A stretch of 64,000 nucleotides of DNA from Gloeobacterales cyanobacterium (GCA_038245785.1 JBBRSB010000007.1:32001-96000), one strand, 5' to 3'; shown: positions 5,855 through 19,614, counted from the first letter of the stretch. Notes: generated by a model not told the origin, from the letters alone. Program-made: numbers and translations.

Positions 5855-6033
5855 AGGGTCGTAGGCTGAGCTCCAGTGATCATTTTCTATTTTTAGGGCA
5901 GGTGCGGACAAGTAGAACACAAAAACCAGTAGAAGTACTCAGAAAACTGACTCTTTTTCATACGTCTAGTGTCGGAAGCGTTTACCCACCCCCAGGGTTA
6001 GTGCTACATTATCGCAAATGGTCAGGTGTTCAC

Positions 6034-7704
6034 ATGGTTAGCTTCTCCCGAGAACCAGAGCCGTTTAAGTCTAACGCTCCAAAATCTCTCGGCATCGTGG
6101 TACAGGGCTCTCTTAGTCTGGGATTGGAAGCCAGACTGAATGCCGATGTGTCTGTAGAAGATATGCGGGTAGGCAAATTTGTAATTATCAAGGGCCGTAG
6201 AACACGCTTTTTTTCGATGCTGACCGATGTAGTCCTCGGCACCTCTAGCCCCAAAATTTTGATGAATCCTCCAGACCATGATGATGATTTTATGTCTGAA
6301 GTTCTAGCAGGGACAGGCACTTTTGGTACAGTAAAGCTGACGCCGATGCTCATGTTCGAACCAGAGACCAATGAGTTGCGTCCGGTAAAGACAGTCCCTT
6401 CTCACTTTGCCCAGGTTTTAGATGCCACCGAGTTTGACTTTACCCAAGTTTTTGGGAGCGAGGCAGACCCTGAGCGCAAGAATTTCAACATTGGTCAGCC
6501 CCTCGATATGGATGTACCGATTTGTCTGGACCTGGAGCGTTTTGTCGAACGTTCTAATGGCATTTTTGGAAAGTCAGGAACGGGTAAATCTTTCTTAACG
6601 CGTTTGATTCTCAGCGGCGTGATTCGCAAGAAAGCAGCGGTCAACCTGATTTTTGATATGCATTCTGAATATGGCTGGGAAGCGGCCAAAGAAGGGAAAG
6701 AAAGCAGCACCGTAAAGGGCCTACGCCAGCTATTCACGGGTCAGGTGCAAATCTATACCCTAGACCCAGAAGCGAGTAAGCGGCGAGGCGTCCGGGATGC
6801 TCGTGAACTCTATATCAGCATGAATCAGATTGATGTGGATGACCTGAGTTTGATACGGGGAGAGCTGAATCTTTCCGATGCCAGTATTGAAAATGCAATT
6901 ATTCTACGCAATCACTTCGGCGAGAACTGGATTAGCCGTTTGATGACGATGAGCAACGGTGAAATTCAAGAATTTTGTCAAGAGAATATGGGCAACGCTC
7001 CCTCGATTATGGCCCTGCAGCGCAAGCTAAACCGATTGGAAGACCTGAAATATCTCAAGACCGTATGCCCCCATGACTATCTTTCGGAACTAACCAATAT
7101 TCTGTCCAGTGGAAAACACGTTGTCATTGAGTTCGGTTCCCAAGGTTCTCTGCTTAGCTACATGCTGGCCGCCAATATCATCACCCGCAAGCTGCATGGA
7201 GAATATGTCAAACGAGCAGAGCGATATCTCCAGTCTAAGGACCCTAAAGATAAGCCCCGCCAGTTGATGATCACGATTGAAGAAGCCCACCGCTTCCTGG
7301 ACCCAAAACAGGCCAAGCAGACTATTTTTGGGACGATTGCACGCGAGATGCGCAAGTATTTTGTCACGCTCCTAGTAGTTGACCAGCGCCCTTCTGGAAT
7401 TGATAACGAAGTGATGTCTCAACTGGGCACCCGGATCACGGCCCTTTTAAATGACGATAAAGATATTGATGCCGTTTTCACAGGCGTAGCCGGAGGCCAA
7501 GCGCTGAGGACGGTCCTCTCCCAAATGGACCCCAAGCAACAAGCGCTGATTCTTGGCTACGCCGTACCGATGGCGGTGGTCGTGCGCACCCGCGCCTACG
7601 ATGAAAAGTTCTATCGAGAGATTGGGGCAGATTTGTGGGAAGACCGCTCGGATGAAGATATTCGTTCAGCGGCAGAGTTGGCTAAATCGGATCTAGGTTT
7701 CTGA
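6034..7704 (+). CDS. HerA-like (DUF87) P-loop ATPase with N-terminal HAS barrel
   Basis: Walker A GKSGTGKS, IFDMHSEYG, Walker B ITIEEAHRF, AREMRKY, VDQRPS. Start moved to ATG 6034. Confidence 0.85.
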   Translation: MVSFSREPEPFKSNAPKSLGIVVQGSLSLGLEARLNADVSVEDMRVGKFVIIKGRRTRFFSMLTDVVLGTSSPKILMNPPDHDDDFMSEVLAGTGTFGTVKLTPMLMFEPETNELRPVKTVPSHFAQVLDATEFDFTQVFGSEADPERKNFNIGQPLDMDVPICLDLERFVERSNGIFGKSGTGKSFLTRLILSGVIRKKAAVNLIFDMHSEYGWEAAKEGKESSTVKGLRQLFTGQVQIYTLDPEASKRRGVRDARELYISMNQIDVDDLSLIRGELNLSDASIENAIILRNHFGENWISRLMTMSNGEIQEFCQENMGNAPSIMALQRKLNRLEDLKYLKTVCPHDYLSELTNILSSGKHVVIEFGSQGSLLSYMLAANIITRKLHGEYVKRAERYLQSKDPKDKPRQLMITIEEAHRFLDPKQAKQTIFGTIAREMRKYFVTLLVVDQRPSGIDNEVMSQLGTRITALLNDDKDIDAVFTGVAGGQALRTVLSQMDPKQQALILGYAVPMAVVVRTRAYDEKFYREIGADLWEDRSDEDIRSAAELAKSDLGF

Positions 7705-7765: not shown

Positions 7766-8191
7766 ATGACTGACCTGACTGAGCGTGCGCGTTCCCTTTC
7801 TATCGCCTGTGGCCCTGAGGATAAAGGCTATCAATCTCATCTTTTGCTCTGCGCGGACCAAAGCAAGCCCCTCTGTTGTGACAAAGCTACGGGGTTAGTT
7901 GCCTGGGACTATCTTAAAAAGCGCATTAGAGAACTGGGACTGGAAGGACCAGAAGCGACGCAACCCGTTTTTCGCAGCAAGGTAAACTGCCTGCGGGTCT
8001 GTCAAAATGGTCCCATCCTCTTGGTTTATCCCGGCGGTTATTGGTACCACAGTGCTACGCCTGAAGTGATTGAGCGCATTCTGCAAGAGCATATCCTTCG
8101 CGGCATTCCGGTCCAGGAATATCTCTTTGCCGAAAATCCGCTCCCTTCGACTCCGCTCAGGGAGCCTATGCGGGGAGAAGGAGAAAAGTAG
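7766..8191 (+). CDS. Thioredoxin-like (2Fe-2S) ferredoxin
   Basis: HLLLCADQSKPLCC and KVNCLRVCQNGPILLVYPGGYWY motifs. Confidence 0.9.
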   Translation: MTDLTERARSLSIACGPEDKGYQSHLLLCADQSKPLCCDKATGLVAWDYLKKRIRELGLEGPEATQPVFRSKVNCLRVCQNGPILLVYPGGYWYHSATPEVIERILQEHILRGIPVQEYLFAENPLPSTPLREPMRGEGEK

Positions 8192-8213
8192 TTCTTAATT
8201 CCTTATCCACACT

Positions 8214-9287
8214 TTAAAGAATCAAGTTCAAGTCACCAAACTCATGCCAAAGATAGCGATCCTTTACCGCTTCCTGATACGCTTCTCGAATCACCGAGGG
8301 AGGTAAGAAAGCGGTGAGTAAATCAAGATGGCTGGCCTCTGGCTCATGCAATCCGGTTAATAGCCCCTCTACGGCTTTAAGGTGATGGTTCTCTGTAATC
8401 CGCAGCCGAGTGTATCCGTGCCCTGCCTGCACATTGCTTGCTTTATCAACCACTGACTCCAAAGCTCGAACTACGGTGGTTCCCACTGCAATGACCCGCC
8501 CACCTGCTTGATGGGTCTGGTTAATCTTCTGAGCCGTCGCCTCACTGATGAAGTACTCCTCTTCAGAAGCAAGATGCTCAGCATCAAGGTCGTCATCCAT
8601 GTAAGAAGAAAGTCCCGTGTGCAAAACAATCTGGGCGGTTTGGATTCCTTGCCGCTGAAGGTCGAACAACAGTTTCCAGGTAAAGGCTCGCCCTGCGGAC
8701 GGCATCTCGGCAGAACCCGGTTCTTTTGCGTAGACGGTCTGGTAATAGTCGAGGTCCCAAGGGGCAGACACATACTCATAGCGAATCGGTTGTCCCAGGC
8801 GGTAAAGCGAATTGATTAACTCCGTTCCTGATTGAGAGAACCGAAGTTTCCAGAGCCGTGGAATCGTGGGATCGCGCGACTCTACGATCGCGCTTAACTG
8901 CGGACTGAAGTGAAGATGCATTCCGCTTTGCAAGCCACAGGCAAAGGGTTCGCCCTCTTGGCACAACAAGAGTGCCAGCCAGGAGTTATCCGGTAAGTGC
9001 TCCGCTAAACGAACCTGCATACAGGCTCCAATGGGAGCTTCACACCCCTCAAGGGCAGCAGGAAGCGTTCGACTGGAGTTAAAGACGAGCAAATCGCCAG
9101 GGCGCAGAAAGTTGCCCAACTGATCAAAGCGGCTATGTTCTACTCGAAAAGTTTGGCGCTTCTCTGCCGCAGACGTTTCACGAGCAATAACCATTAACCG
9201 GACACGATCGCGAGCAATCCCTCTGCGCTCTGGTGGTTCTTTCGCAGAAAGCTCAGGCGGAAGCGTGAAGGAAAAGGGGGCAGACAT
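8214..9287 (-). CDS. QueA-like SAM:tRNA ribosyltransferase-isomerase family protein
   Basis: FSFTLPPELSA, YQTVYA, VIAVGTTVVRALES, YLWHEFGDLNLI. Divergent motifs GQPIRYEYV and PGSAEMPSAGRAFT indicate the QueA-like subfamily. Confidence 0.85.
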   Translation of the reverse strand: MSAPFSFTLPPELSAKEPPERRGIARDRVRLMVIARETSAAEKRQTFRVEHSRFDQLGNFLRPGDLLVFNSSRTLPAALEGCEAPIGACMQVRLAEHLPDNSWLALLLCQEGEPFACGLQSGMHLHFSPQLSAIVESRDPTIPRLWKLRFSQSGTELINSLYRLGQPIRYEYVSAPWDLDYYQTVYAKEPGSAEMPSAGRAFTWKLLFDLQRQGIQTAQIVLHTGLSSYMDDDLDAEHLASEEEYFISEATAQKINQTHQAGGRVIAVGTTVVRALESVVDKASNVQAGHGYTRLRITENHHLKAVEGLLTGLHEPEASHLDLLTAFLPPSVIREAYQEAVKDRYLWHEFGDLNLIL

Positions 9288-9335
9288 GGCTCAGTCCTTT
9301 TTTGTTGAGAATAAGCAACTTCATGGGTCCCGGAA

Positions 9336-9404
9336 GCCCCCTAAATCCCCCAATGCTGGGGGACTTTGAAGTCAGAACCCCCCAGCATTGGGGGGCAGGG
9401 GGGC
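9336..9404. repeat. Double-hairpin palindromic repeat (family A, empty copy)
   Basis: CCCCCAATGCTGGGGG and CCCCCCAGCATTGGGGG hairpins. The reverse complement aligns with 31158-31290. Confidence 0.8.
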
Positions 9405-9409
9405 GAAAC

Positions 9410-10171
9410 TCAAGCAACTTCATGAGGAGCTTCCTCAAAGTCATCCTCATCCTGTGCATGAAACCGTTGTCCACTCACTTCCTGGGACTCATCCGATGCT
9501 AGATAGACGAAGATGTCTGTAACTTCTTTGGGGTCAGCCCATTGATTCGGGTCTTCCTCAGGTTCAGCCGCACGGTGCATGGCCGTATTCATATTTCCTG
9601 GGTCAACCCAATTAACACGAACCTTGCTGTCTATAAGTTCGGCGGCCCAAGTTTGGGACAGTCCTTCTAGACCAAATTTCGAGATGCCATAAGCACCCCA
9701 ACCGGGATATCCGGTCACGCCTGCATCACTGGTGACGTTGATAATTGAACCACCCTGTTCAATCATGGCAGGCAACGCTTTCTTAATCAGCAGAAAGGGT
9801 GCAATCAGGTTCGTATTAAGCACGTTGTGGAAATCTACGAGCGGATAGTCGAGCAAAAAGGGCATGGGAGAAGGACCAATCGCAGAAGCATTGTTCACTA
9901 AAATATCCAGCTTCCCCTGAAACTCATTAAGCGTAGTCGCAATGACGCGCTCAACATCACTGGGTTGGCTAAGATCCGCCGCGATGGCTAACACTTTTGT
10001 TTCAGGTGCAGCTTCCTGAATGAGCTGGCGAGCTTTCTCCAGCAACTCAGCCCCACGCGCGACAATGGCAAGGCCTGCTGCTCCTTCTTGGGCAAATGCG
10101 AGCGCAAGCTGCAATCCCAATCCCTGTGAAGCCCCTGTAATTAACCCATATTTTTCTTGCAGTCTACTCAT
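9410..10171 (-). CDS. SDR family NAD(P)-dependent oxidoreductase
   Basis: TGASQGLG, LVNNAS, YGISK catalytic motif. Start at 10171 preceded by AGGAG RBS. Confidence 0.92.
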   Translation of the reverse strand: MSRLQEKYGLITGASQGLGLQLALAFAQEGAAGLAIVARGAELLEKARQLIQEAAPETKVLAIAADLSQPSDVERVIATTLNEFQGKLDILVNNASAIGPSPMPFLLDYPLVDFHNVLNTNLIAPFLLIKKALPAMIEQGGSIINVTSDAGVTGYPGWGAYGISKFGLEGLSQTWAAELIDSKVRVNWVDPGNMNTAMHRAAEPEEDPNQWADPKEVTDIFVYLASDESQEVSGQRFHAQDEDDFEEAPHEVA

Positions 10172-10547
10172 TGTTTGACTCCTAAGAACCCTGACCCTCT
10201 TGGCCAGCGGAGAACAGCTTATCTTTCTTATATCATAGTCATAATGAGCATGAGTTAGTGTCCACAAGATTTGAGCGCAAGTTGTGTCACTGCTTGAGAA
10301 GTCTTCCGCATTTCTCACTCATAAGACTTTTGAAGACTCGCTTGCCCCAGAGAATATGTCGAAATTTTCGCTTTTTTTTGACACATTCTACTGATATGTC
10401 GATACTGTCGACACCTTCTTGACATCCTCCCCATCGCATGGCTTGTGAGGATTCCTAAGCTTCAGCTCGAAAAGTGGATCTTTGCAAGCTGTTGTAGGTC
10501 ATGATTTATGCTGAAGATAGAATTTACTTTGCAATCGTTGTTTAACC

Positions 10548-10808
10548 GTGCGTCAATTTCTGAAGCCAATTAATCTGGAAATCTCTCCAGACTCTCTGAG
10601 CCAAGGCGAACAGGCAATCCGCCAAACGCTGGCTCTACAGCTCTATGCCCAGGATATTTTTACCTTTGGGCAAGCCCGACGATTAGCGGATTTGTCGGTG
10701 TGGGAATTCCAACAACTGCTGGCACAAAACAAAATCGAGCGTCATTACAAAGAAACAGACTTGGCCCAGGATGTGGATTCAATTGAGACAGGCACCTGGC
10801 AATCGTGA
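10548..10808 (+). CDS. UPF0175 family antitoxin
   Basis: LALQLYAQDIFTFGQARRLADLSVWEFQQLL. Overlaps the downstream PIN gene by 4 bp. Confidence 0.85.
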   Translation: MRQFLKPINLEISPDSLSQGEQAIRQTLALQLYAQDIFTFGQARRLADLSVWEFQQLLAQNKIERHYKETDLAQDVDSIETGTWQS

Positions 10809-11290
10809 CCGTCATCTGCAACGCTACACCTCTGATTAATTTCGCTGTCACTAATCGCCTAAATATTTTGCAAGAAACCTTCGGGCGAATCATCATCCCC
10901 CAGGCTGTTTATCATGAAACCACAGGGACTGGCTTTCCCGGTTCATCCTCTGTGAAGCAGGCGATCGCGGCAAAATGGTTAGAGGTTCGTCCAGTCTCGA
11001 TAGTAGGTGCCAATATTGCTCCAGAGCTGGATGACGGAGAGCGAGAAGCTGTCGCTCTTGCCCTCGAAACAGGCATTCAGCGTATTCTCCTGGATGAGCG
11101 TGAAGCCCGTCAGGTCGCTCAACAACTTGGCTTACAAGTTATGGGCACTTTGGGGATTCTTTTGCTTGCCAAAAACCGTCAGACGATTCCCCAGGTACGC
11201 CCATTACTGGATGCCATGATCAACACAGCCCAATACTGGGTCAGTGACACACTTTATCAGCAAGTTTTACGACAAGCTGGAGAGTTATAA
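10805..11290 (+). CDS. DUF3368 PIN-domain toxin
   Basis: VICNATPLI, LDDGEREAVALA, LLDEREAR, VMGTLGILL. Confidence 0.9.
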   Translation: MTVICNATPLINFAVTNRLNILQETFGRIIIPQAVYHETTGTGFPGSSSVKQAIAAKWLEVRPVSIVGANIAPELDDGEREAVALALETGIQRILLDEREARQVAQQLGLQVMGTLGILLLAKNRQTIPQVRPLLDAMINTAQYWVSDTLYQQVLRQAGEL

Positions 11291-11763
11291 GTTTGCCCAG
11301 CGACAGCGAGGGTGACCTCTACCAGCAATTCTTGTTTTGCCATGAGGGTATCAAGAAATGTCGGGGTACAGCACTAACTCTAGCCTGCGTCCTAATATTT
11401 TTGACCACTGCTCTCTCTTTAGAGAAAGAGCCTTAAATGTTGCACTTTATTTTTGAATCAGCGGAGAATAAAGTGCAAGTACTCATAGAAATAAGACAAT
11501 ACAAACCAATTCAAAGTATTTCTATGTACATGGAACTTCATCAACTCTTCATAAAAGAGGAGCATTCGTTTCCTCCTGTTTTCTCACATAAAATCTAATT
11601 TTTCGACGAACACAAGCAATATTTTAGGGATCGCAATAATCAGCTAAAGACTAACTAAGTTCACCGATAGATCTTACAATTGACATTCTCTTTTTCTACT
11701 CAGTATAATTACCCTTAGGTGTTTGCTTGCCACACAGCTAAAGTAAAACTCTTGTAAGACCAA

Positions 11764-11962
11764 GGAAATGTTAATGCAAGAATAGGTATGTTTGAGAATG
11801 CTTTGTCTCTTTGTGATTAAGGTATTGCTTTGAATGATAAGAATCCAGCACATTACAACAATCGTGCTGCTATCCTAAAGACACTGAGACAATTTCAGGA
11901 GGCTATTGAGCAATGTGAGGAGTGAGGAGATTATTCGAAAGTTTCCTGACTATGGGAAGGCC
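11764..11962 (+). pseudogene. TPR-repeat gene remnant
   Basis: Translates GNVNARIGMFENALSLCD*GIALNDKNPAHYNNRAAILKTLRQFQEAIEQCEE. A 7-bp duplication (TGAGGAG x2, 11916-11929) then shifts the frame before IIRKFPDYGKA. Confidence 0.7.
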
Positions 11963-12088
11963 ATTCTTTTTATGTATAAGTAGCCAAGCATTGAGGTTGG
12001 TCACTATAAAGGTTCTATTTCTACTTAAATTTATTTCGTTTAGCACAAAATGTTTAGCGATGCACAGTTTGCAACGGAAATACTGCTG

Positions 12089-14425
12089 ATGAAATCATTA
12101 TCTGGATTTATAGCGTATCCATCTCAGCCTATAGCCATTGGTTCAGTGATTTCACAAGCACTAAATTCACTAAAGCCTGACGCGGCAAAAATTCATCTCA
12201 CTTCTTGGCAAGAAAATGATATTGCAGGTCGTTTTCTAATTGATCCAATCCTTACCAACATCAGTATTTCTGATGTTTTAGTGGCTGATATTACACGCCT
12301 GAACTTCAATGTTATTTTTGAGATTGGATACGCCATTGGTCGTAAGAAACGGGTATATTTAGTCCGTAATGATGCGCTAACTGGCTCAGATACTCTGATC
12401 CGCGAAGTTGGTATATTTGATACGCTTGGATACAACCAGTATTCAAATTCTGATGAACTCGCAACTCTGTTACGAGCAATTGTGGATGTTAAACCACTAT
12501 CCTTTGATGCCAATCAAATTAACACGAGCGCTCCAGTCTATCTTGTTCTACCCCGGAAAAAGACGGATTTAGAAATTAGACTTGTATCCCGAATCAAGAA
12601 AGCACGCTTACAATTTCGCAGCTTTGATGCTGAGGAATTAGGTCGCCTCGCTGCAGGTGAAGCAATTGAGAATGTAGCAAAATCTCATGGCATAGTCCTT
12701 CCTCTTCTCTCAAAGGAACGAATAGATTTTGAAGTTCACAACTTCCGTGCGGCCTTTGTTGCTGGCTTAGCAATGGCACTTGATAAAATCTTACTACTTT
12801 TACAAGAAGGAGAAGATCCCGTTCCGCTGGATTACCGAGACCTTGTGAAGAGCTTTCGAGGCTTAGATCAAATTAATGTTTACATCGCTGACTTTGCTAC
12901 GGAAGTTGGTGCTCGCTTCCAATCCACTTCCTCTCCGATTGTTTCTGAACCTAAGACTTTCCTTGAGCGATTAAACTTAGGTGCATCCGCAGCCGAGAAT
13001 GAGTTACAGGATTTGGGTAATTACTACATAGAAACAGATGAATATAGACGTGCGTTAAGTGGAGAGGTGCGTGTAGTAACAGGACGTAAAGGAGCTGGGA
13101 AAACAGCATTATTTGCTCAAGTTCGTAATAAATTACGTCAAGATAGAAGTAGAGTTGTATTGGATTTAAAACCAGAAGGCTTTCAGTTACTTAAGTTTAG
13201 AGAAAAAGTACTTGATTACCTTGAAGAAGGTACCAAAGAACATACTATTACTGCATTTTGGGAGTACTTGCTATTATTGGAGATTTGCCATAAGCTCTTG
13301 CAAAAGGACGAAGAATTTCATTTGCGTGACAATCGGCTATATGAGCCATATCGCTTACTTGCGCAGGCATATAAAGAAGACGAATACGTATCAGAGGGTG
13401 ATTTCTCAGAACGTATGCTCAAGCTAACGCAGCGTATAGCTGATGACTTTGCTTCATCTCAAACTGATCGAGACGAACTTAAATATTTAAAAACTGGCCA
13501 GATTACAGAATTATTGTACAAACATAATCTGACTGCCCTACGTAAGCGTGTAATAGAGTACTTGAAATACAAAAAAGGATTATGGCTTCTCTTTGACAAC
13601 TTAGACAAAGGATGGCCAGCGCACGGAGTAACTCCAGAAGATGTTCTAACACTTCGATGTCTGATAGATGCAATGTCTAAGATTGAGAGAGAACTCCGTA
13701 AACATAACATTGACTGTCATGGCATCGTGTTCATTCGTAATGATGTATATGAGCTTTTGGTTGCGAATACTCCAGACAGAGGAAAGGTAGCCAGCATTAC
13801 ATTGGATTGGACTGATCCTGAGTTGATGAGGGAACTTTTGAGGCGTAGATTTCTTTACACCGACACAGGTATCGCTGATAACTCATCATTTGATGAGATT
13901 TGGCGACAAATTGCGACCACGCACATTCAAGGAGAAGAGACATCACATTACTTAATCGACCGAAGCCTTATGCGTCCTCGTGCCCTTATTGACTTAGTGC
14001 GCTTTTGTCGAAGCCATGCAGTAAACCTCAGACATGATCGTATCGAAGTTGCAGACATAGAACACGGAGAAGAAGCGTACTCAAATGAATTATTAAGCAA
14101 CATAGATTTTGAAATACAAGATGTTGAACCCTCAGCTGCGGGATTGCTGTATGAATTTATAGAATCCAATGAAGTACTTTCAGGAACCGATATTTACAAT
14201 ATTTTATCAAAAGCTGTTGGTGAAAACAAAGCAGGTCTAATGCTTTCACTCCTCCTATGGTATGGCTTTTTCGGTGTAATGCGTGAGGACGGAGAAACAA
14301 CATACATCTATTCGGTAAAATATGATATTAAGCGGCTTGAAGCAATGCTCAAAAAGCGTGGACTCGAGAATGCTTCATTCAAGATAAATCCTGCATTTTG
14401 GCGTGCCCTTGAAATACGAAACTGA
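12089..14425 (+). CDS. Tandem NDT/TIR-like domains fused to Sll1717/FunZ-like P-loop ATPase (candidate defence protein)
   Basis: DVLVADITRLNFNVIFEIGYAIG N-domain, Walker A VTGRKGAGKT, Walker B LWLLFDNLDKGW, RPRALIDL. Start could be 12050 or 12089. Confidence 0.75.
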   Translation: MKSLSGFIAYPSQPIAIGSVISQALNSLKPDAAKIHLTSWQENDIAGRFLIDPILTNISISDVLVADITRLNFNVIFEIGYAIGRKKRVYLVRNDALTGSDTLIREVGIFDTLGYNQYSNSDELATLLRAIVDVKPLSFDANQINTSAPVYLVLPRKKTDLEIRLVSRIKKARLQFRSFDAEELGRLAAGEAIENVAKSHGIVLPLLSKERIDFEVHNFRAAFVAGLAMALDKILLLLQEGEDPVPLDYRDLVKSFRGLDQINVYIADFATEVGARFQSTSSPIVSEPKTFLERLNLGASAAENELQDLGNYYIETDEYRRALSGEVRVVTGRKGAGKTALFAQVRNKLRQDRSRVVLDLKPEGFQLLKFREKVLDYLEEGTKEHTITAFWEYLLLLEICHKLLQKDEEFHLRDNRLYEPYRLLAQAYKEDEYVSEGDFSERMLKLTQRIADDFASSQTDRDELKYLKTGQITELLYKHNLTALRKRVIEYLKYKKGLWLLFDNLDKGWPAHGVTPEDVLTLRCLIDAMSKIERELRKHNIDCHGIVFIRNDVYELLVANTPDRGKVASITLDWTDPELMRELLRRRFLYTDTGIADNSSFDEIWRQIATTHIQGEETSHYLIDRSLMRPRALIDLVRFCRSHAVNLRHDRIEVADIEHGEEAYSNELLSNIDFEIQDVEPSAAGLLYEFIESNEVLSGTDIYNILSKAVGENKAGLMLSLLLWYGFFGVMREDGETTYIYSVKYDIKRLEAMLKKRGLENASFKINPAFWRALEIRN

Positions 14426-14699
14426 TGCCTTTCAGGGCTTTAAAATGCTAAGCGAACATATTATAGAGTGTCAATCTATATTGATATTTCTGAAGTGCTT
14501 ACCAGGGTTACCACCCTTTACTGTCAGTCATGAACAGGCGGTAGCAGCATTGAATCCCTGAGGTTGATGTCGAGAAAGTTTCTATATAATACGTATTTAG
14601 TCTGCAAGTATTGTTGGTGAAGGTGATATGTTGCTAAGTCTTCAGCATAGTTGACTATGTTAGAATTAGCATCATTTCTAGCAATATATAGAGATAGGT

Positions 14700-15563
14700 A
14701 TGCAACTAAAAAAGTCAAAATCTCAGATTGAACGTGAGTTGATAGATTTCATGAATTACGGATACAGCATTCTCACTACCATACAGTCAGAGTTTATAAG
14801 AAAAAAATGGAAGGGAATATTTTCATTTGAAGATGACCAAAGGCAATGTAATACCGTAGACCAGTGGACAGCAGATGCCATATCATTTATTTCTTCTGTA
14901 TTTCCTACTTACTTTGAAATTAAAGACTTCGAAATCTCGATGCATCCGGAGCCAAATAGTCTCTCTTTGCTCTCTTCTAATCATGCTCTTAGAAATTTAT
15001 TAAAGCATAGAATTAGACTACTTGATCAGGTTGTCAGGAATAATATAAATAGATATGATGATGCAAGAAAACTTAGAATTTTTATAGATGAGATTTATAG
15101 CTTCAAAGACGTAGAAAAAGTAATACCAGGAATGGTAATAGATTTACTTGACGATGGCTTGCTGAATCAGTCGGAAGATTTTATTCAAATTAGCCTGGAA
15201 GAAATTCTTACTGTTCCATTTCATAAAAAGGATTGGGGTGGAGAAGTAAATGATTTATATACAGCAAATATCATCATTACAGGGGTTAGAGTAGCAACTG
15301 CATTTCTTCTAAAAGGTAATGGACTTAAAAAGAAAATTCTCGAAGTAAGAGATTGCGGTAAGAACGGGAATCAAATTATAAGACTGTGTGATTCACCTGC
15401 CCAACTTTTTATCATTCAGTTTGTAGGTGAAATATCTGAGTACGTGGTGCGAGATATTGAAGGGAAAGTTAATGAACTACAACTACAAGGTAAGATAGCG
15501 CAATACTGCATAATGGATGGACAGGATACAGCACGTATACTACGGGCATATGGCAAGCTGTAG
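14700..15563 (+). CDS. Hypothetical protein with C-terminal restriction-endonuclease-like domain
   Basis: KKDWGGEVNDLYT...AFLLKG...GKNGNQIIRL...CIMDGQDTARIL resembles a PD-(D/E)xK fold. AT-rich gene. Confidence 0.55.
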   Translation: MQLKKSKSQIERELIDFMNYGYSILTTIQSEFIRKKWKGIFSFEDDQRQCNTVDQWTADAISFISSVFPTYFEIKDFEISMHPEPNSLSLLSSNHALRNLLKHRIRLLDQVVRNNINRYDDARKLRIFIDEIYSFKDVEKVIPGMVIDLLDDGLLNQSEDFIQISLEEILTVPFHKKDWGGEVNDLYTANIIITGVRVATAFLLKGNGLKKKILEVRDCGKNGNQIIRLCDSPAQLFIIQFVGEISEYVVRDIEGKVNELQLQGKIAQYCIMDGQDTARILRAYGKL

Positions 15564-15649
15564 TAAGCTTGTGGTTCTCGAAGATCGAAACTGGTGAAGA
15601 TACATCAGATATGATCAAGACAGTACGAAAAGCTACGCAAGACAGCAGC

Positions 15650-15928
15650 ATGAACATCAGTCTAAATCTGCCTTCAGAATTGGAAGATGAGCTATCCACT
15701 GAAGCATCCAAACTCAAATTGCCCTTGGATGAATGCATTTTACGTATTCTTTCTTTACGTCCTTTCCCTCAAAATCCGCCCAAAACAGGTGCAGAACTGG
15801 TTGCCTATTGGGAAAGTGCTGGGGTCATCAACTCACGTCCTGATATCACGGACAGCCAGGAATACGCTCGTAGATTGCGTCATGAAGCTAAAACTCGTGA
15901 GCGGGTAAAATCCGCCAGATGGCTTTAG
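15650..15928 (+). CDS. Orphan antitoxin-like small protein (RHH-like N-terminus)
   Basis: MNISLNLPSELEDELSTEASKLKLPLDECILRIL...DSQEYARRLR. No toxin follows. Confidence 0.6.
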   Translation: MNISLNLPSELEDELSTEASKLKLPLDECILRILSLRPFPQNPPKTGAELVAYWESAGVINSRPDITDSQEYARRLRHEAKTRERVKSARWL

Positions 15929-15973
15929 GTAAGAATTACTTTAAAGATTGGCAGTCAGTTGACTGAATTTGTT

Positions 15974-16198
15974 ATGGCATCTACATCCCGTATTGTTCAT
16001 AGCGACCCCGATATTCTGGGAGGAACTCCTGTTTTTGTTGGAACGCGCGTACCCATGAGAACCCTGCTTGACTATCTTGAAGCGGGTGATTCATTGGAGG
16101 TGTTTCTAGACCATTTCCCTAGTGTTAGTCGTGAACAGGCGATTGCGGCTCTTGAACTAGCAAAAGAAATGCTGACGGCCTATGCGAATCCTGCTTGA
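15974..16198 (+). CDS. DUF433 antitoxin
   Basis: DPDILGGTPVFVGTRVPM...FLDHFPSVSREQAIAAL. Confidence 0.9.
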   Translation: MASTSRIVHSDPDILGGTPVFVGTRVPMRTLLDYLEAGDSLEVFLDHFPSVSREQAIAALELAKEMLTAYANPA

Positions 16199-16241
16199 TG
16201 AATGTGCCCCACGACCTTTCAGCCTGTCTGAATTAGAATAG
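16182..16241 (+). pseudogene. Truncated DUF5615 PIN-like toxin (first ~12 codons only)
   Basis: MRILLDECAPRP overlaps the DUF433 end, as in intact DUF433/DUF5615 pairs, then stops after 19 aa. Confidence 0.75.
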
Positions 16242-16267
16242 CCATAGCAGGTTCGCCGGAGAGCAAA

Positions 16268-16495
16268 ATGGATACATCGATTCTTGACAAAGTGGTTGAG
16301 CAGTTACGCGGGATGCCGCAGAATTTACAGAAACAAGTCCTAGAATTTGCTAAAACTTTGACCGATTCAACCGTTCAAGGGGTTCCTGGTTCTCAACTTC
16401 TACGGTTTGCAGGCACAATCCAACCCGACGATCTTGTGTCGATGAGTGAAGCGATTGAGCAAGGCTGCGAACAGGTCGATACTAATGAGTGGTAG
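16268..16495 (+). CDS. VapB-like antitoxin (DUF2281-like)
   Basis: LRGMPQNLQKQVLEFAKTL...LLRFAGTI. Overlaps the vapC start. Confidence 0.75.
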   Translation: MDTSILDKVVEQLRGMPQNLQKQVLEFAKTLTDSTVQGVPGSQLLRFAGTIQPDDLVSMSEAIEQGCEQVDTNEW

Positions 16496-16874
16496 CTACT
16501 TATTGGACACGAACATCATCATTGCGCTATTTGCAAGTGAGGCGGCAGTTAGAAGCAGTTTTGCACAAGCAGAGGCAGTGTTTGTTCCAAGCATTGTGGT
16601 GGGTGAGTTGTGTTACGGTGCGAGAAAATCAGCACGAACAACTGAGAATTTAGAACGGATTGAAGAGTTGGTCGTTGAGAGCGCTGTGCTGGTTTGTGAT
16701 ACAGAGACAGCACAGCGTTATGGAGAAGTCAAAAATAAACTGCGCCTCAAGGGGAGACCGCTCCCAGAAAACGATATTTGGATTGCTGCGCTTGCTCTTC
16801 AATATAATCTAACGTTAGTGACACGCGATGCTCATTTTCAAGAGATTGAGAATTTGCAAACCATTGCTTGGTAG
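16485..16874 (+). CDS. vapC: VapC family PIN toxin
   Basis: YLLDTNIII, VGELCYGA, ENDIWIAALA, LVTRDAHF. Start moved to ATG 16485. Confidence 0.9.
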   Translation: MSGSYLLDTNIIIALFASEAAVRSSFAQAEAVFVPSIVVGELCYGARKSARTTENLERIEELVVESAVLVCDTETAQRYGEVKNKLRLKGRPLPENDIWIAALALQYNLTLVTRDAHFQEIENLQTIAW

Positions 16875-16897
16875 ATGACAGTGGTCGAACAAATCGT

Positions 16898-16955
16898 TGG
16901 AGCAGCTAGCAAACTTGCGCGTCTCGTTACAAGCACGTCAAAATTTGAATAAGGA
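16898..16955 (+). repeat. 58-bp direct repeat, copy 1
   Basis: Matches 19506-19563 with 6 mismatches by manual alignment. Confidence 0.9.
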
Positions 16956-17030
16956 GAGTTGACGGTAGATTTTGCGCACAACTGAGAATAATTGGTTGCG
17001 AATATAGCGTTTATTAACCATACTGAGGAC

Positions 17031-17528
17031 ATGAGCACGATTACAGATACCCATTTCAACCCATCTGAGCTGTCCGAAGAGGAGAAACAACGGCTTCAGA
17101 AAGTACTGGAGACTGAAGTCCGCCCCATACTCTTGAGCATGGATGGCGATCATGCTATCGAGTTACCGAAGCCCGTAAATGACCTATTTATCGAAATCCT
17201 ACAGGCGATCCGACGAAACGAAGCTGTATTTCTTGTACACGAAGACGAGGCGTTCACCACCCAGGCGGCAGCGGACTATCTAGGCGTTTCGCGGCAGTTC
17301 TTCGTCCGCCTCTTGGAAACTGGAAAGCTCCCTTTCCACCGCGTTGGTACTCATCGCCGGGTGCTCTTCAAAGATTTGGTCGCTTATCGCCAAACCCGGA
17401 GCCGCGAACGACTGGCCAAGCTCGACGAAATGACGGCGGAGCTGGTGGAAGCTGACCTTGATGCCCAATATGTAGATCTCACGCGCCCCGACCCGAAAAG
17501 CTACTCGGCCAGAGAGGAGGTTTTATGA
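17031..17528 (+). CDS. Excisionase-like HTH DNA-binding protein (antitoxin-type)
   Basis: FTTQAAADYLGVSRQFFVRLLETGKLPFHRVGTHRRV. Confidence 0.85.
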   Translation: MSTITDTHFNPSELSEEEKQRLQKVLETEVRPILLSMDGDHAIELPKPVNDLFIEILQAIRRNEAVFLVHEDEAFTTQAAADYLGVSRQFFVRLLETGKLPFHRVGTHRRVLFKDLVAYRQTRSRERLAKLDEMTAELVEADLDAQYVDLTRPDPKSYSAREEVL

Positions 17529-17541
17529 AGAAGGAAGTTGA
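17494..17541 (+). pseudogene. 3' remnant of a BrnT-family toxin
   Basis: An alternative frame reads RKATRPERRFYEEGS*, the typical BrnT C-terminus, overlapping the start of the following antitoxin. Confidence 0.7.
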
Positions 17542-17758
17542 GCATGAGATGGAAGACGAACTTCGTTCTGAGTATGATTTTGCTCAAATGGGGAAGGGTA
17601 TTAAGGGTAAGTATGTTGAGCGATACCGTTCAGGAACAAATTTAGTGCTTTTAGATCCCGATGTTGCTCAAGCTTTTCCCAATGATATGGCAGTGAATGA
17701 AGCACTAAGAATGTTAATCCAGATTGCCCAGCGCCAGCAGCCCAAAAATACACTCTAA
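17525..17758 (+). CDS. BrnA-like antitoxin (orphan)
   Basis: DELRSEYDF...GKYVERY...LDPDVAQAFP...VNEALRMLI. Confidence 0.75.
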   Translation: MKKEVEHEMEDELRSEYDFAQMGKGIKGKYVERYRSGTNLVLLDPDVAQAFPNDMAVNEALRMLIQIAQRQQPKNTL

Positions 17759-17822
17759 ACCTGACCATCTCGGTATCGAGTAAGCTGTACGTATGAACTT
17801 CTGAAATCTAGAGGCGCATGAT

Positions 17823-18038
17823 ATGACACTAGCTGAGGTGCTTCCTTCGGCGCGACAACTCTCCGCAACAGAAAAACTCAAGCTGATTCGGATTCTGATA
17901 GAAGATTTGGATATAACTGAGGATATTTCACCGTTAGAACCCTTCAAGACCTATGACCTACCGACTCCCTACGATAGTTTTGGGGCGGGTGCAGTTCTCG
18001 TGGAGACCCTCAAGTCACCAGATGCAGGCCACCAGTAA
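17823..18038 (+). CDS. Small antitoxin-like hypothetical protein
   Basis: LSATEKLKLIRILIEDL helix. Ends 3 bp before the aspartyl protease pseudogene. Confidence 0.6.
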   Translation: MTLAEVLPSARQLSATEKLKLIRILIEDLDITEDISPLEPFKTYDLPTPYDSFGAGAVLVETLKSPDAGHQ

Positions 18039-18041
18039 CGT

Positions 18042-18446
18042 ATGCGATTTAAGTATTCAACCACTCGTCCAACCCAAAACGAGTTTGATAGCCTGCCAAG
18101 ACTTCCACTTACATTGCAGCAAGACAATCGCAGCATTGAAACGATTGGTTTAGTGGATAGCGGAGCTACAGTTAACGTCTTGCCTTACGAACTAGGTCTG
18201 CAATTAGGTGCTGTTTAGGATGATCGCAAAGCCATTATTCGATTAGCGGGTAATCTCGGTAATCAGCCAGCGATGCCTTTTTCCGCAACCGCTCAAATTG
18301 GGAATTTTACACCAACCAAATTGGTGTTTGCCTGGGTGAGCAGTCCGAATGTACCCTTAATTCTTGGTCAAACTAACTTTTTCCTTGAGTTTGATATTTG
18401 TTTTTACCGCTCTAAGTCTGAGTTTGAAATTAAACTGAAATCATAG
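18042..18446 (+). pseudogene. Retropepsin-like aspartyl protease with one in-frame stop
   Basis: GLVDSGATVNVLP and PLILGQTNFF motifs in one frame. TAG at 18216-18218 in LGAV*DD, probably from TGG. Confidence 0.85.
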
Positions 18447-18545
18447 CCAGCTAGCTATGCCAGTGAGGCTGTCATTAGTACGTGTCTAATACGATGACTC
18501 CGACACGCTGTGCTAGAGTTCAGAGCTAAAGCTCAAGAGATTACG

Positions 18546-18833
18546 ATGACTTCACAAGTGGTTTATCCTCACATCGAGAAGCCAGAGGGTCAGCCTGCTC
18601 ACTTACAAAGGTTGCCCCGCATTCGGGTTGCTCAAATTGTGATGGACTACTTAGCCTATGGCTGGTCCGTAGAGGAGATGTGTCACCAGCATCCTTACCT
18701 CCGCCCCCCGGAAGCTTATGCAGCGATGGGTTACTACTTCGACTACCAGGAAGAAATCGATAGCGAAATTCGCAGTGAATGGGAACAAGCACAGCGAGAA
18801 AGAAAGCAAACTCTTGATTGCACAAACCTCTAA
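18546..18833 (+). CDS. DUF433 antitoxin (orphan)
   Basis: PRIRVAQIVMDYLAYGWSVEEMCHQHPYL...YAAMGYYFD. Confidence 0.8.
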   Translation: MTSQVVYPHIEKPEGQPAHLQRLPRIRVAQIVMDYLAYGWSVEEMCHQHPYLRPPEAYAAMGYYFDYQEEIDSEIRSEWEQAQRERKQTLDCTNL

Positions 18834-18949
18834 ATCTAAAGAGTGGTTAAATACTGTCGAATACTTGCCCTTTCGGTGAGTGACGAAGGAAATAGACTTT
18901 CACAGTATGTATGATAGATGTAAATAACTCAATTTCATTGCGCCGCTTT

Positions 18950-19174
18950 ATGGACTACCACGACATCATCACCATTGAGCCTGGAAAACGCAGTGGCAAG
19001 CCTTGTATTCGAGGAATGCGAATCACGGTGTACGACATCTTAGAATATTTGGCGGGTGGCATGACCGAAGCCAAAATTTTAGAAGATTTTTCTGAACTCA
19101 CCTCAGAGGACATCAAAGCTTGTCTTGCTTTCGCGGCTGACCGCGAGAAGAAACTATTTGTAGCATCGCTGTGA
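18950..19174 (+). CDS. DUF433 antitoxin
   Basis: IEPGKRSGKPCIRGMRITVYDILEYLAGGM. Confidence 0.92.
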   Translation: MDYHDIITIEPGKRSGKPCIRGMRITVYDILEYLAGGMTEAKILEDFSELTSEDIKACLAFAADREKKLFVASL

Positions 19175-19503
19175 AATTGCTATTAGATGAAAACTTGTCA
19201 GACCGGATTATTTACAAAATTATTGATTTATACCCCGATTCTGAACATGTCAAGACCCTGGCATTGATGAATACAGAAGACGTCATTATCTGGGAATATG
19301 CGAAAGTTAATGGTTTTGTGATTGTTTCTAAAGACTCTGACTTCCATCAGCGCAGTTTACTTTACGGTCATCCACCTAAGTTTGTTTATCTTCGGATTGG
19401 CAATAGCCCAACGTCAAAGATTACTCAAATTTTGAGCGATAACTTTGACACTATCATTCAGTTTGAAGAGAGAGAGGCAGAGAGCATCCTAGTGTTGGCA
19501 TAG
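19171..19503 (+). CDS. DUF5615 PIN-like toxin
   Basis: MKLLLDENLS, IVSKDSDF, GHPPKFVYLRIGN. 4-bp overlap with DUF433. Confidence 0.9.
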   Translation: MKLLLDENLSDRIIYKIIDLYPDSEHVKTLALMNTEDVIIWEYAKVNGFVIVSKDSDFHQRSLLYGHPPKFVYLRIGNSPTSKITQILSDNFDTIIQFEEREAESILVLA

Positions 19504-19505
19504 TG

Positions 19506-19563
19506 TGGAGCAGTTAGCAAACTTGCGCGTCTCATTTCAGGCACGTCAAAATATAAATAAGGA
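19506..19563 (+). repeat. 58-bp direct repeat, copy 2 (right edge of island)
   Basis: TGGAGCAGTTAGCAAACTTGCGCGTCTC...AATAAGGA matches 16898-16955. Confidence 0.9.
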
Positions 19564-19614
19564 TGAAAGGGGATTAATCATGAGCTTGTCACCTGAAATA
19601 CCAATACGCTCTTC

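Follow-up and report, generated by a model that had tools for sequence, protein, structure and literature searches.

In Avs and the other NLR-like STAND proteins a swappable N-terminal effector is followed by a STAND-like ATPase, its lid and winged helix, and an extended C-terminal sensor (TPR, WD40 or similar); the survey by Lee et al. (2026; PMC13581612) analysed sensors of at least 400 aa. In retron Ec86 (Eco1) the toxic enzyme has an NDT fold with catalytic Glu and Asp residues, is controlled by RT-msDNA and is reported to form an asymmetric dimer with one filled site and a pocket built by both subunits (10.1101/2023.08.16.553469). The type VIII Thoeris effector ThsI is a CMP hydrolase that contains a TPR and depends on a separate gene for the TIR signal; Yirmiya (2025) describes this effector and sets stand-alone TIR proteins aside. 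Swarozyc is a single-gene DUF4062 TIR-like NADase with a catalytic Glu and is reported to cause abortive infection by loss of NAD+ (Osinski, 2026; 10.64898/2026.05.01.722283), and DS-41, a validated ATPase-only protein, is listed as single-gene and defensive in Table S6 of DefensePredictor (PMC13092281). In the DefensePredictor tables searched (PMC13092281), WP_215440379.1, a protein of 790 aa named nucleoside 2-deoxyribosyltransferase, is predicted to be a novel defence gene with log-odds of 9.39; it appears in that prediction table only and is absent from the table of tested systems.

We analysed a 64,000 nt stretch of DNA (the window) from a Gloeobacterales cyanobacterium (JBBRSB010000007.1:32001-96000), in which an intact ORF of 778 aa encodes two NDT/TIR-like domains (D1 and D2) ahead of an Sll1717-type ATPase (Table 1). 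The frame is open to position 14425 from either an in-frame ATG at 12050 or the start at 12089, and the second is preferred since the frames of homologues begin at the residue that matches its methionine, several with a stop just before. An AlphaFold2 model of the full protein has a mean pLDDT of 85.8.

Table 1. Features of the NDT-ATPase gene and of the DNA immediately upstream (window positions)
Feature	Position	Strand	Basis
Promoter match, sigma70-type, TTGACA-18-TATAAT, perfect	11680..11709	+	12/12 consensus match, consensus match only; 380 nt upstream
Broken TPR-like ORF remnant, one internal stop	11788..11925	+	Translation, TPR likeness by eye; lies between promoter match and gene
Whole gene: D1 (NDT-like), D2 (non-catalytic twin), Sll1717-type ATPase, lid, winged helix	12089..14425	+	ORF and AlphaFold2
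D1, residues 4-129, NDT/DNPH1-like; Y10, W40, D67, N72, N74, putative nucleophile E78	12098..12475	+	Profile and fold matches
E78 codon	12320-12322	+	Within D1
D2, residues 148-280, TIR/NDT-fold, V224 at catalytic-Glu position	12530..12928	+	Fold match, conservation, predicted D1 interface
AAA+/STAND-like ATPase core, residues 297-591	12977..13861	+	NF047389, 312.9 bits; Cdc6/Orc1-type folds
Walker A GRKGAGKT, residues 332-339	13082-13105	+	Sequence
Large helical insertion in ATPase, residues 364-492 (~130 residues)	13178-13564	+	Secondary structure of model
Walker B LLFDNLD, residues 500-506	13586-13606	+	Sequence
Helical lid 600-680 (with R629-P-R631) and winged helix 681-776	13886..14416	+	Structural alignment to Cdc6/Orc1

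The protein does not match any named system in full, and PADLOC returned only partial matches, none of them to an Avs model, for it and eight homologues. The Sll1717 family label (NF047389) covers the ATPase alone and states no function, so that the D1-D2 head is extra. The ATPase is related to that of DS-41 (E-value 6e-9), although the 448-position model of the latter (NF053860) matches only from residue 301, at 35.3 bits against a cut-off of 370, and DS-41 has no NDT-like head; six diverse homologues score 33-52 bits, likewise under the cut-off. As in Avs, a putative effector that relatives exchange precedes a central NTPase with lid and winged helix, but the chain has no extended C-terminal sensor and ends with a winged helix of ~95 residues. 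The packing predicted between D1 and D2 is helix to helix, similar to that of Ec86, but the dimer would here be a single chain with a permanently Glu-less half, controlled by an ATPase rather than by RT-msDNA; no reverse transcriptase is a conserved neighbour, and the RT-named PADLOC matches are only to protease and helicase parts. D1 belongs to the enzyme class used by ThsI, but the gene has neither a TPR nor a TIR signal partner, and no conserved separate effector gene of the Thoeris type is present in 72 loci. As in Swarozyc there is a TIR/NDT-like enzyme with a catalytic Glu in one gene, although the partner domain is different and no DUF4062 match was found in the protein at E≤0.1. The earlier note had called the system undescribed, and the literature that we searched indeed yields no name, no experiment and no description of an NDT-NDT-Sll1717 family; neither 'deoxyrib', Sll1717 nor four homologue accessions occur in the main text and seven of the ten data files of Lee et al. 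(2026; PMC13581612), whose 589 clades may list the family elsewhere. That statement has nevertheless to be narrowed, since WP_215440379.1, whose first 400 residues, the part compared, carry the same motifs by eye, is probably a relative from E. coli and has been scored there as a likely defence gene.

We favour, with somewhat more confidence than doubt, a one-protein anti-phage system whose toxic enzyme would be a predicted single-chain NDT-type dimer, with a Cdc6/STAND-like ATPase as the likely infection-triggered switch. An anti-phage role as such is probable, and some role in defence or conflict highly likely.

D1 has the hallmarks of the NDT / N-ribosyltransferase clan, namely a flavodoxin-like fold with an Asp on strand 3 (D67) and a nucleophilic Glu on the next helix (E78). 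Both residues lie in ADITRLNFNVIFEIGYA (residues 66-82), the motif with a catalytic-type Glu that had been pointed out before, and are very well conserved (Glu in 304 and Asp in 311 of 312 aligned sequences). The similarity to PF05014 is 22.2 bits, under the gathering cut-off of 28.8, which one homologue (P0179) exceeds at 29.6 bits. The closest solved sequence is that of DNPH1, a nucleotide-monophosphate N-hydrolase, in a profile search (E-value 7e-5) that aligns E78 with the Glu of YELG, and the fold matches MilB (Z 9.3) and NDTs (Z 7.9-8.6).

D2 matches TIR domains best (4c6t, Z 10.4, rmsd 2.7 over 126 aligned residues; TIR-STING, Z 10.3) and is about level with MilB (Z 10.0), so the distinction between NDT and TIR is not sharp; although the fold matches TIR, the catalytic Glu that TIR NADases carry on helix C is absent. 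Both domains are five-stranded and flavodoxin-like in the AlphaFold2 model (residues 4-129 and 148-280). The claim that this second Rossmann unit lacks the catalytic Glu is borne out: a profile-profile alignment of D1 and D2 places V224 on E78 (E-value 0.0037, probability 9 %, weak by itself, and in a local hhalign register where global alignment gave none), and none of the 312 sequences has Glu in column 224, which is always occupied by a small or a hydrophobic residue. The word 'degenerate', by which D2 had been described, is misleading, as its conservation equals that of D1 (mean column identity 0.70 versus 0.64) and the domain is not decaying. Its conserved residues are E183, R186, H217, N218, G226 and P246-x-D248-x-R250, of which N218 and G226, both within HNFRAAFVAGLAMAL (residues 217-231), are kept in 312 of 312.

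The conserved helix of D2 is predicted to pack on that of D1. The two-domain model is rigid (pTM 0.91), and the interface comprises helix 73-85 on helix 219-230, with G80 against G226, together with loops 106-113 and 246-249. When D1 and D2 were folded as two chains the score was 0.87 against 0.00 for the best control (116 of 157 solved pairs attain this mark, but only 2 of 215 mismatched ones), although these are two halves of one chain and the score may reflect likeness to solved NDT/DNPH1 dimers; contact agreement between runs was at least 95 % and partner pLDDT at least 86. The model thus predicts likeness to an NDT dimer through the catalytic helices, and not a function. By analogy with Ec86, D1-D2 may be an asymmetric NDT dimer fixed within a single chain. 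Of the pairing of a catalytic with a regulatory pseudo-enzyme domain proposed in the earlier note, the non-catalytic nature of D2 stands, whereas 'regulatory' fits less well, D2 being more likely a built-in second subunit that completes the D1 pocket.

Residues 297-774 match the whole NF047389 profile (positions 1-454 of 454) at 312.9 bits against a cut-off of 75, in agreement with the Sll1717-type assignment made beforehand, and the Walker motifs are intact as had been reported, with G337, K338, D503, D506, R550, R587 and R631 invariant in 312 of 312 sequences. The best fold matches are Cdc6/Orc1 (2qby, Z 13.4, rmsd 6.0, 329 aligned), SSO1545 (2fna, Z 13.1) and TnsC (Z 12.5), with plant NLRs and Avs5 (Z 10.4 for Avs5) weaker; SSO1545 and Cdc6 are effectively tied, and the fold scores do not separate a STAND placement from a Cdc6/TnsC-type one. 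The full-length alignment to Cdc6/Orc1 covers model residues 291-776, so that what had been described as a helical C-terminal region is helical but is better defined as an AAA+ lid followed by a winged helix. Neither the model nor the fold search gives a sensor domain after the winged helix, and the chain ends at residue 778. Domain assignment by profile and fold search was productive for DNPH1 and for the MilB, NDT, TIR and Cdc6 folds, but Foldseek with both models gave just weak, mixed two-domain matches; a search of solved structures with the single protein sequence returned nothing under an E-value of 0.4.

We can suggest how such a protein might act. D1 would cut an N-glycosidic bond using E78 as nucleophile together with D67, in a pocket that the P246-D248-R250 loop and H217 of D2 may finish, and the ATPase would hold this enzyme off until a phage cue arrives. 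Since there is no TPR sensor, the cue, a protein or DNA, would be bound by the helical insertion or the winged helix. By analogy with Avs, Ec86 and Swarozyc, oligomerization of the ATPase might then open the D1-D2 site, and the active enzyme could drain NAD+ or nucleotide monophosphates and so bring about abortive infection; we lean slightly towards NAD+/adenine nucleotides over (d)NMPs as the substrate. If the family does defend, it would represent an NLR-like system that lacks the usual TPR sensor and whose trigger must therefore be read in another way. It would also offer an asymmetric NDT dimer fixed by the gene itself, so that either half could be mutated separately, which is not cleanly possible with homodimeric effectors such as Ec86.

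In seven relatives the chain begins with an additional domain, which is SIR2, caspase (two), PNP (two), a calcineurin-like phosphoesterase or CHAT, all of them typical conflict effectors. In part this is borne out by matches to ThsA, CBASS effector, DS-9 and EACC1-caspase models; the calcineurin domain resembles the validated DS-9 (114.9 bits, under the cut-off) and the caspase passes the EACC1-associated model. On a quick tree of the ATPase part the fusions require three changes, at least two of them forced, and a single origin is rejected (p-AU 9e-11), so that there were at least two, and probably three, origins. E78 is lost in five of the seven fused members but in only two of the 304 scorable others (one gapped row dropped), and each of these two is sister to a fused lineage. 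A Fisher test gives a nominal p of 2e-8, which overstates the association, as the losses fall in two lineages. The calcineurin/CHAT pair keeps both W40 and E78. Of the 14 conserved columns in D1 fused members have lost 2-8, and of the 9 in D2 they have lost 2-4 (H217, P246, D248 and R250), whereas of the 62 in the ATPase no more than 0-2 are gone; the background medians are 0, 0 and 2 respectively, with 95th percentiles of 4 for D1 and 2 for D2. The chemistry of E78 can thus be dispensed with once a second effector has been gained, which singles out D1 as the effector. Among the 312 sequences W40+E78 and D248 are both intact in 290 and both lost in 12, with 7 discordant and 3 gapped, and this tracking puts the D2 loop in one functional unit with D1. 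The loss of E78 together with D248 in fused relatives whose ATPase stays intact is new in this analysis, and the series of effector swaps provides ready natural controls.

The same series bears on the alternative that has survived best, in which D1-D2 is a nucleotide sensor or signalling unit that controls the ATPase by binding or making a small molecule (a phage-modified nucleotide or an ADPR-type signal, for example), with the killing done from elsewhere. The dead D1-D2 is kept whole after an effector has been gained, D67, N72, G80, E183, N218 and G226 being intact in seven of seven fused members, and eight unfused relatives of the PNP/caspase clade have lost W40, one of them E78 as well; the unfused homologues noted as W40-less are P0273-P0279, P0137 and P0342, of which two also lack E78 and most lack D248. 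It also agrees with such a role that the chain has no C-terminal sensor of its own and that the nearest solved relatives, DNPH1 and MilB, act on hydroxymethylated nucleotides. We nevertheless think it unlikely, since the ordinary form has no conserved effector gene alongside, the residues that are kept are partly explained by the predicted dimer interface, and the decay of the catalytic residues coincides exactly with the presence of a further effector, as it should if D1-D2 is itself an effector. The unfused W40-less homologues may rely on a separate effector gene; no member of this clade was found in the genome searches for gene neighbourhoods. A related and rather unlikely proposal combines the two roles, in a sensor-less NLR-like class whose single-chain NDT pseudo-dimer would have been the effector ancestrally while also doing the sensing for a Cdc6/TnsC-like ATPase, and would be kept as a dead sensor where SIR2, caspase or PNP effectors have been swapped in; the pseudo-dimer would then read a phage-altered nucleotide pool, and the family would, if this is true, be a natural series of an enzyme turning into a receptor.

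Returning to the one-protein anti-phage reading, the gene neighbourhoods of homologues give it some support. ORFs of at least 85 aa within 6 kb (300 of 321, from 63 of 65 loci, one locus, L005, being left out) were scanned against PADLOC together with 150 of 153 ORFs from 20 arbitrary regions in genomes of the host's class, a control that is not mobility-matched. At E≤1e-30 there are matches for 21 of the 300 neighbour ORFs and 1 of the 150 control ORFs (p 0.002), or 18 and none when helicase-only and ABC matches are omitted. Counted by locus the difference is modest, at 15 of 65 loci against 1 of 20 control regions for all matches (p 0.10) and 12 of 65 against 0 of 20 under the stricter count (p 0.06). 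The defence-island enrichment that had been anticipated is therefore seen clearly for ORFs and less so for loci; the effect is real though of moderate size, and part of it could stem from mobile cargo of whatever kind. In seven loci there is a gene from a system that has been named and validated (BREX, with pglX and pglZ on either side, Hachiman, AbiE, Hma, DISARM, PD-lambda-2 and type I RM), which gives p 6e-5 against the null of 0.0153 taken from Lee et al. (2026; PMC13581612), although the comparison is not like for like, and 3 of 65 loci have two genes of one named system (p 0.08 against the published null). We note a BREX locus (L036:3-7009) in which pglX and pglZ are separated by a homologue together with a DUF6932 gene, and a type I-F CAST (L080:3741-16404) where a homologue follows the Hachiman genes hamAB and precedes tniQ and cas8/5f, apparently carried as cargo of the transposon.

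No neighbour family occurs in more than 3 of 72 independent loci, those that do recur being of transposase, recombinase, ABC and SDR types, and the lack of a recurring neighbour argues that the protein works alone. The earlier suggestion of a single-gene defence system thus gains from the missing conserved neighbour, the defence and prophage contexts, the effector swaps and the lack of a full match to a named system, and it stays that of a candidate.

Members of the family are abundant and mobile: 2,016 proteins were found at E≤1e-20 among 8,000 scored, with 961 representatives at 50 % identity that match the profile at E≤1e-30 (a count that takes in fragments and relatives with the ATPase only), and the corresponding Atlas cluster has 2,182 members. 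Fifteen near full-length plasmid records carry a family member, and in seven plasmid regions the neighbours are integrases, transposases, a relaxase, AbiEi, RES and HEPN/Toprim genes. Five viral contigs contain intact copies in cargo positions, next to integrases, behind tail fibre genes or flanked by head genes. Among 61 relatives searched the full-length gene is present in one, the host itself, and the related-locus search in genome contigs gave one locus. Of 115 short D1-D2 homologues 112 are plain truncations and the other three have short non-matching ends and look frameshifted or started too far upstream, so no fusion of D1-D2 to another C-terminal domain was found among them; one homologue (P0056) has a 300-residue C-terminal extension of unassigned family, with its catalytic residues intact. 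The family is widespread, mobile and unnamed in the literature and databases searched.

This mobility could also mean that the protein acts against plasmids or other mobile DNA, or that it serves mobile elements as an addiction-type toxin; the ATPase and winged helix would then read DNA in the manner of Cdc6 or TnsC. The best folds are indeed those of DNA-binding initiator ATPases, Cdc6/Orc1 and TnsC, copies adjoin relaxases, integrases and transposases, and 9 of 87 fetched copies are broken. Some of the broken copies may be assembly errors, however, no conserved antitoxin gene accompanies the family, and the positions in BREX, Hachiman and prophage contexts fit anti-phage cargo, and we regard this explanation as distinctly unlikely. 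A metabolic or housekeeping role, as a nucleotide-sanitizing enzyme with a regulatory ATPase moved as neutral cargo, is the least probable, for although D1 resembles DNPH1 and 50 of 65 loci are without a strong PADLOC match in their short flanks (median 3.7 kb), the distribution is patchy (5 of 401 genomes of the host's phylum with P0275 as query, host included), there is no metabolic operon and the fused partners are all known conflict effectors.

Within the window the gene is AT-rich, with a G+C content of 0.40 (0.32 at third codon positions) compared with 0.49-0.53 (0.51-0.54) in three neighbouring genes. It is flanked at 10548-11290 and 15569-19503 by a dense run of toxin-antitoxin-type genes (UPF0175/DUF3368, PIN, DUF433, DUF5615, BrnA-like and excisionase-type HTH), and for the region from about 8140 to 19600 two genomes of the same genus, both fragmented assemblies (94 and 97 % complete), give just scattered toxin-antitoxin matches. 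No named defence system adjoins the gene in the window, its neighbours being toxin-antitoxin modules and a low-G+C ORF; HerA, at 5902-7704, was considered as a defence neighbour and ruled out, as it is kept in both same-genus genomes. The low-G+C ORF (14700-15563, + strand, 287 aa, G+C content 0.35) has no Pfam, PADLOC or NCBIfam match, belongs to a 93-member Atlas cluster and gives a weak lead (0.75) to Mrr-type restriction endonuclease domains. It is not linked to the NDT-ATPase gene in 87 homologue loci and is possibly a second, stand-alone defence gene.

Sll1717-type ATPases are also seen elsewhere. On the F plasmid (NC_002483.1; L128:3468-5564) the third gene of a Tn3-family transposon, which we take to be tnpX of Tn1000, encodes a 698-aa Sll1717-family ATPase (291.9 bits) whose C-terminal part matches PDC-M36A; no paper on it was found, and it is possibly a defence gene that has been overlooked in laboratory strains. 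Lactococcus phage CAP (L129:2926-4398) encodes a stand-alone Sll1717 ATPase directly after the lysin gene, a typical position for cargo.
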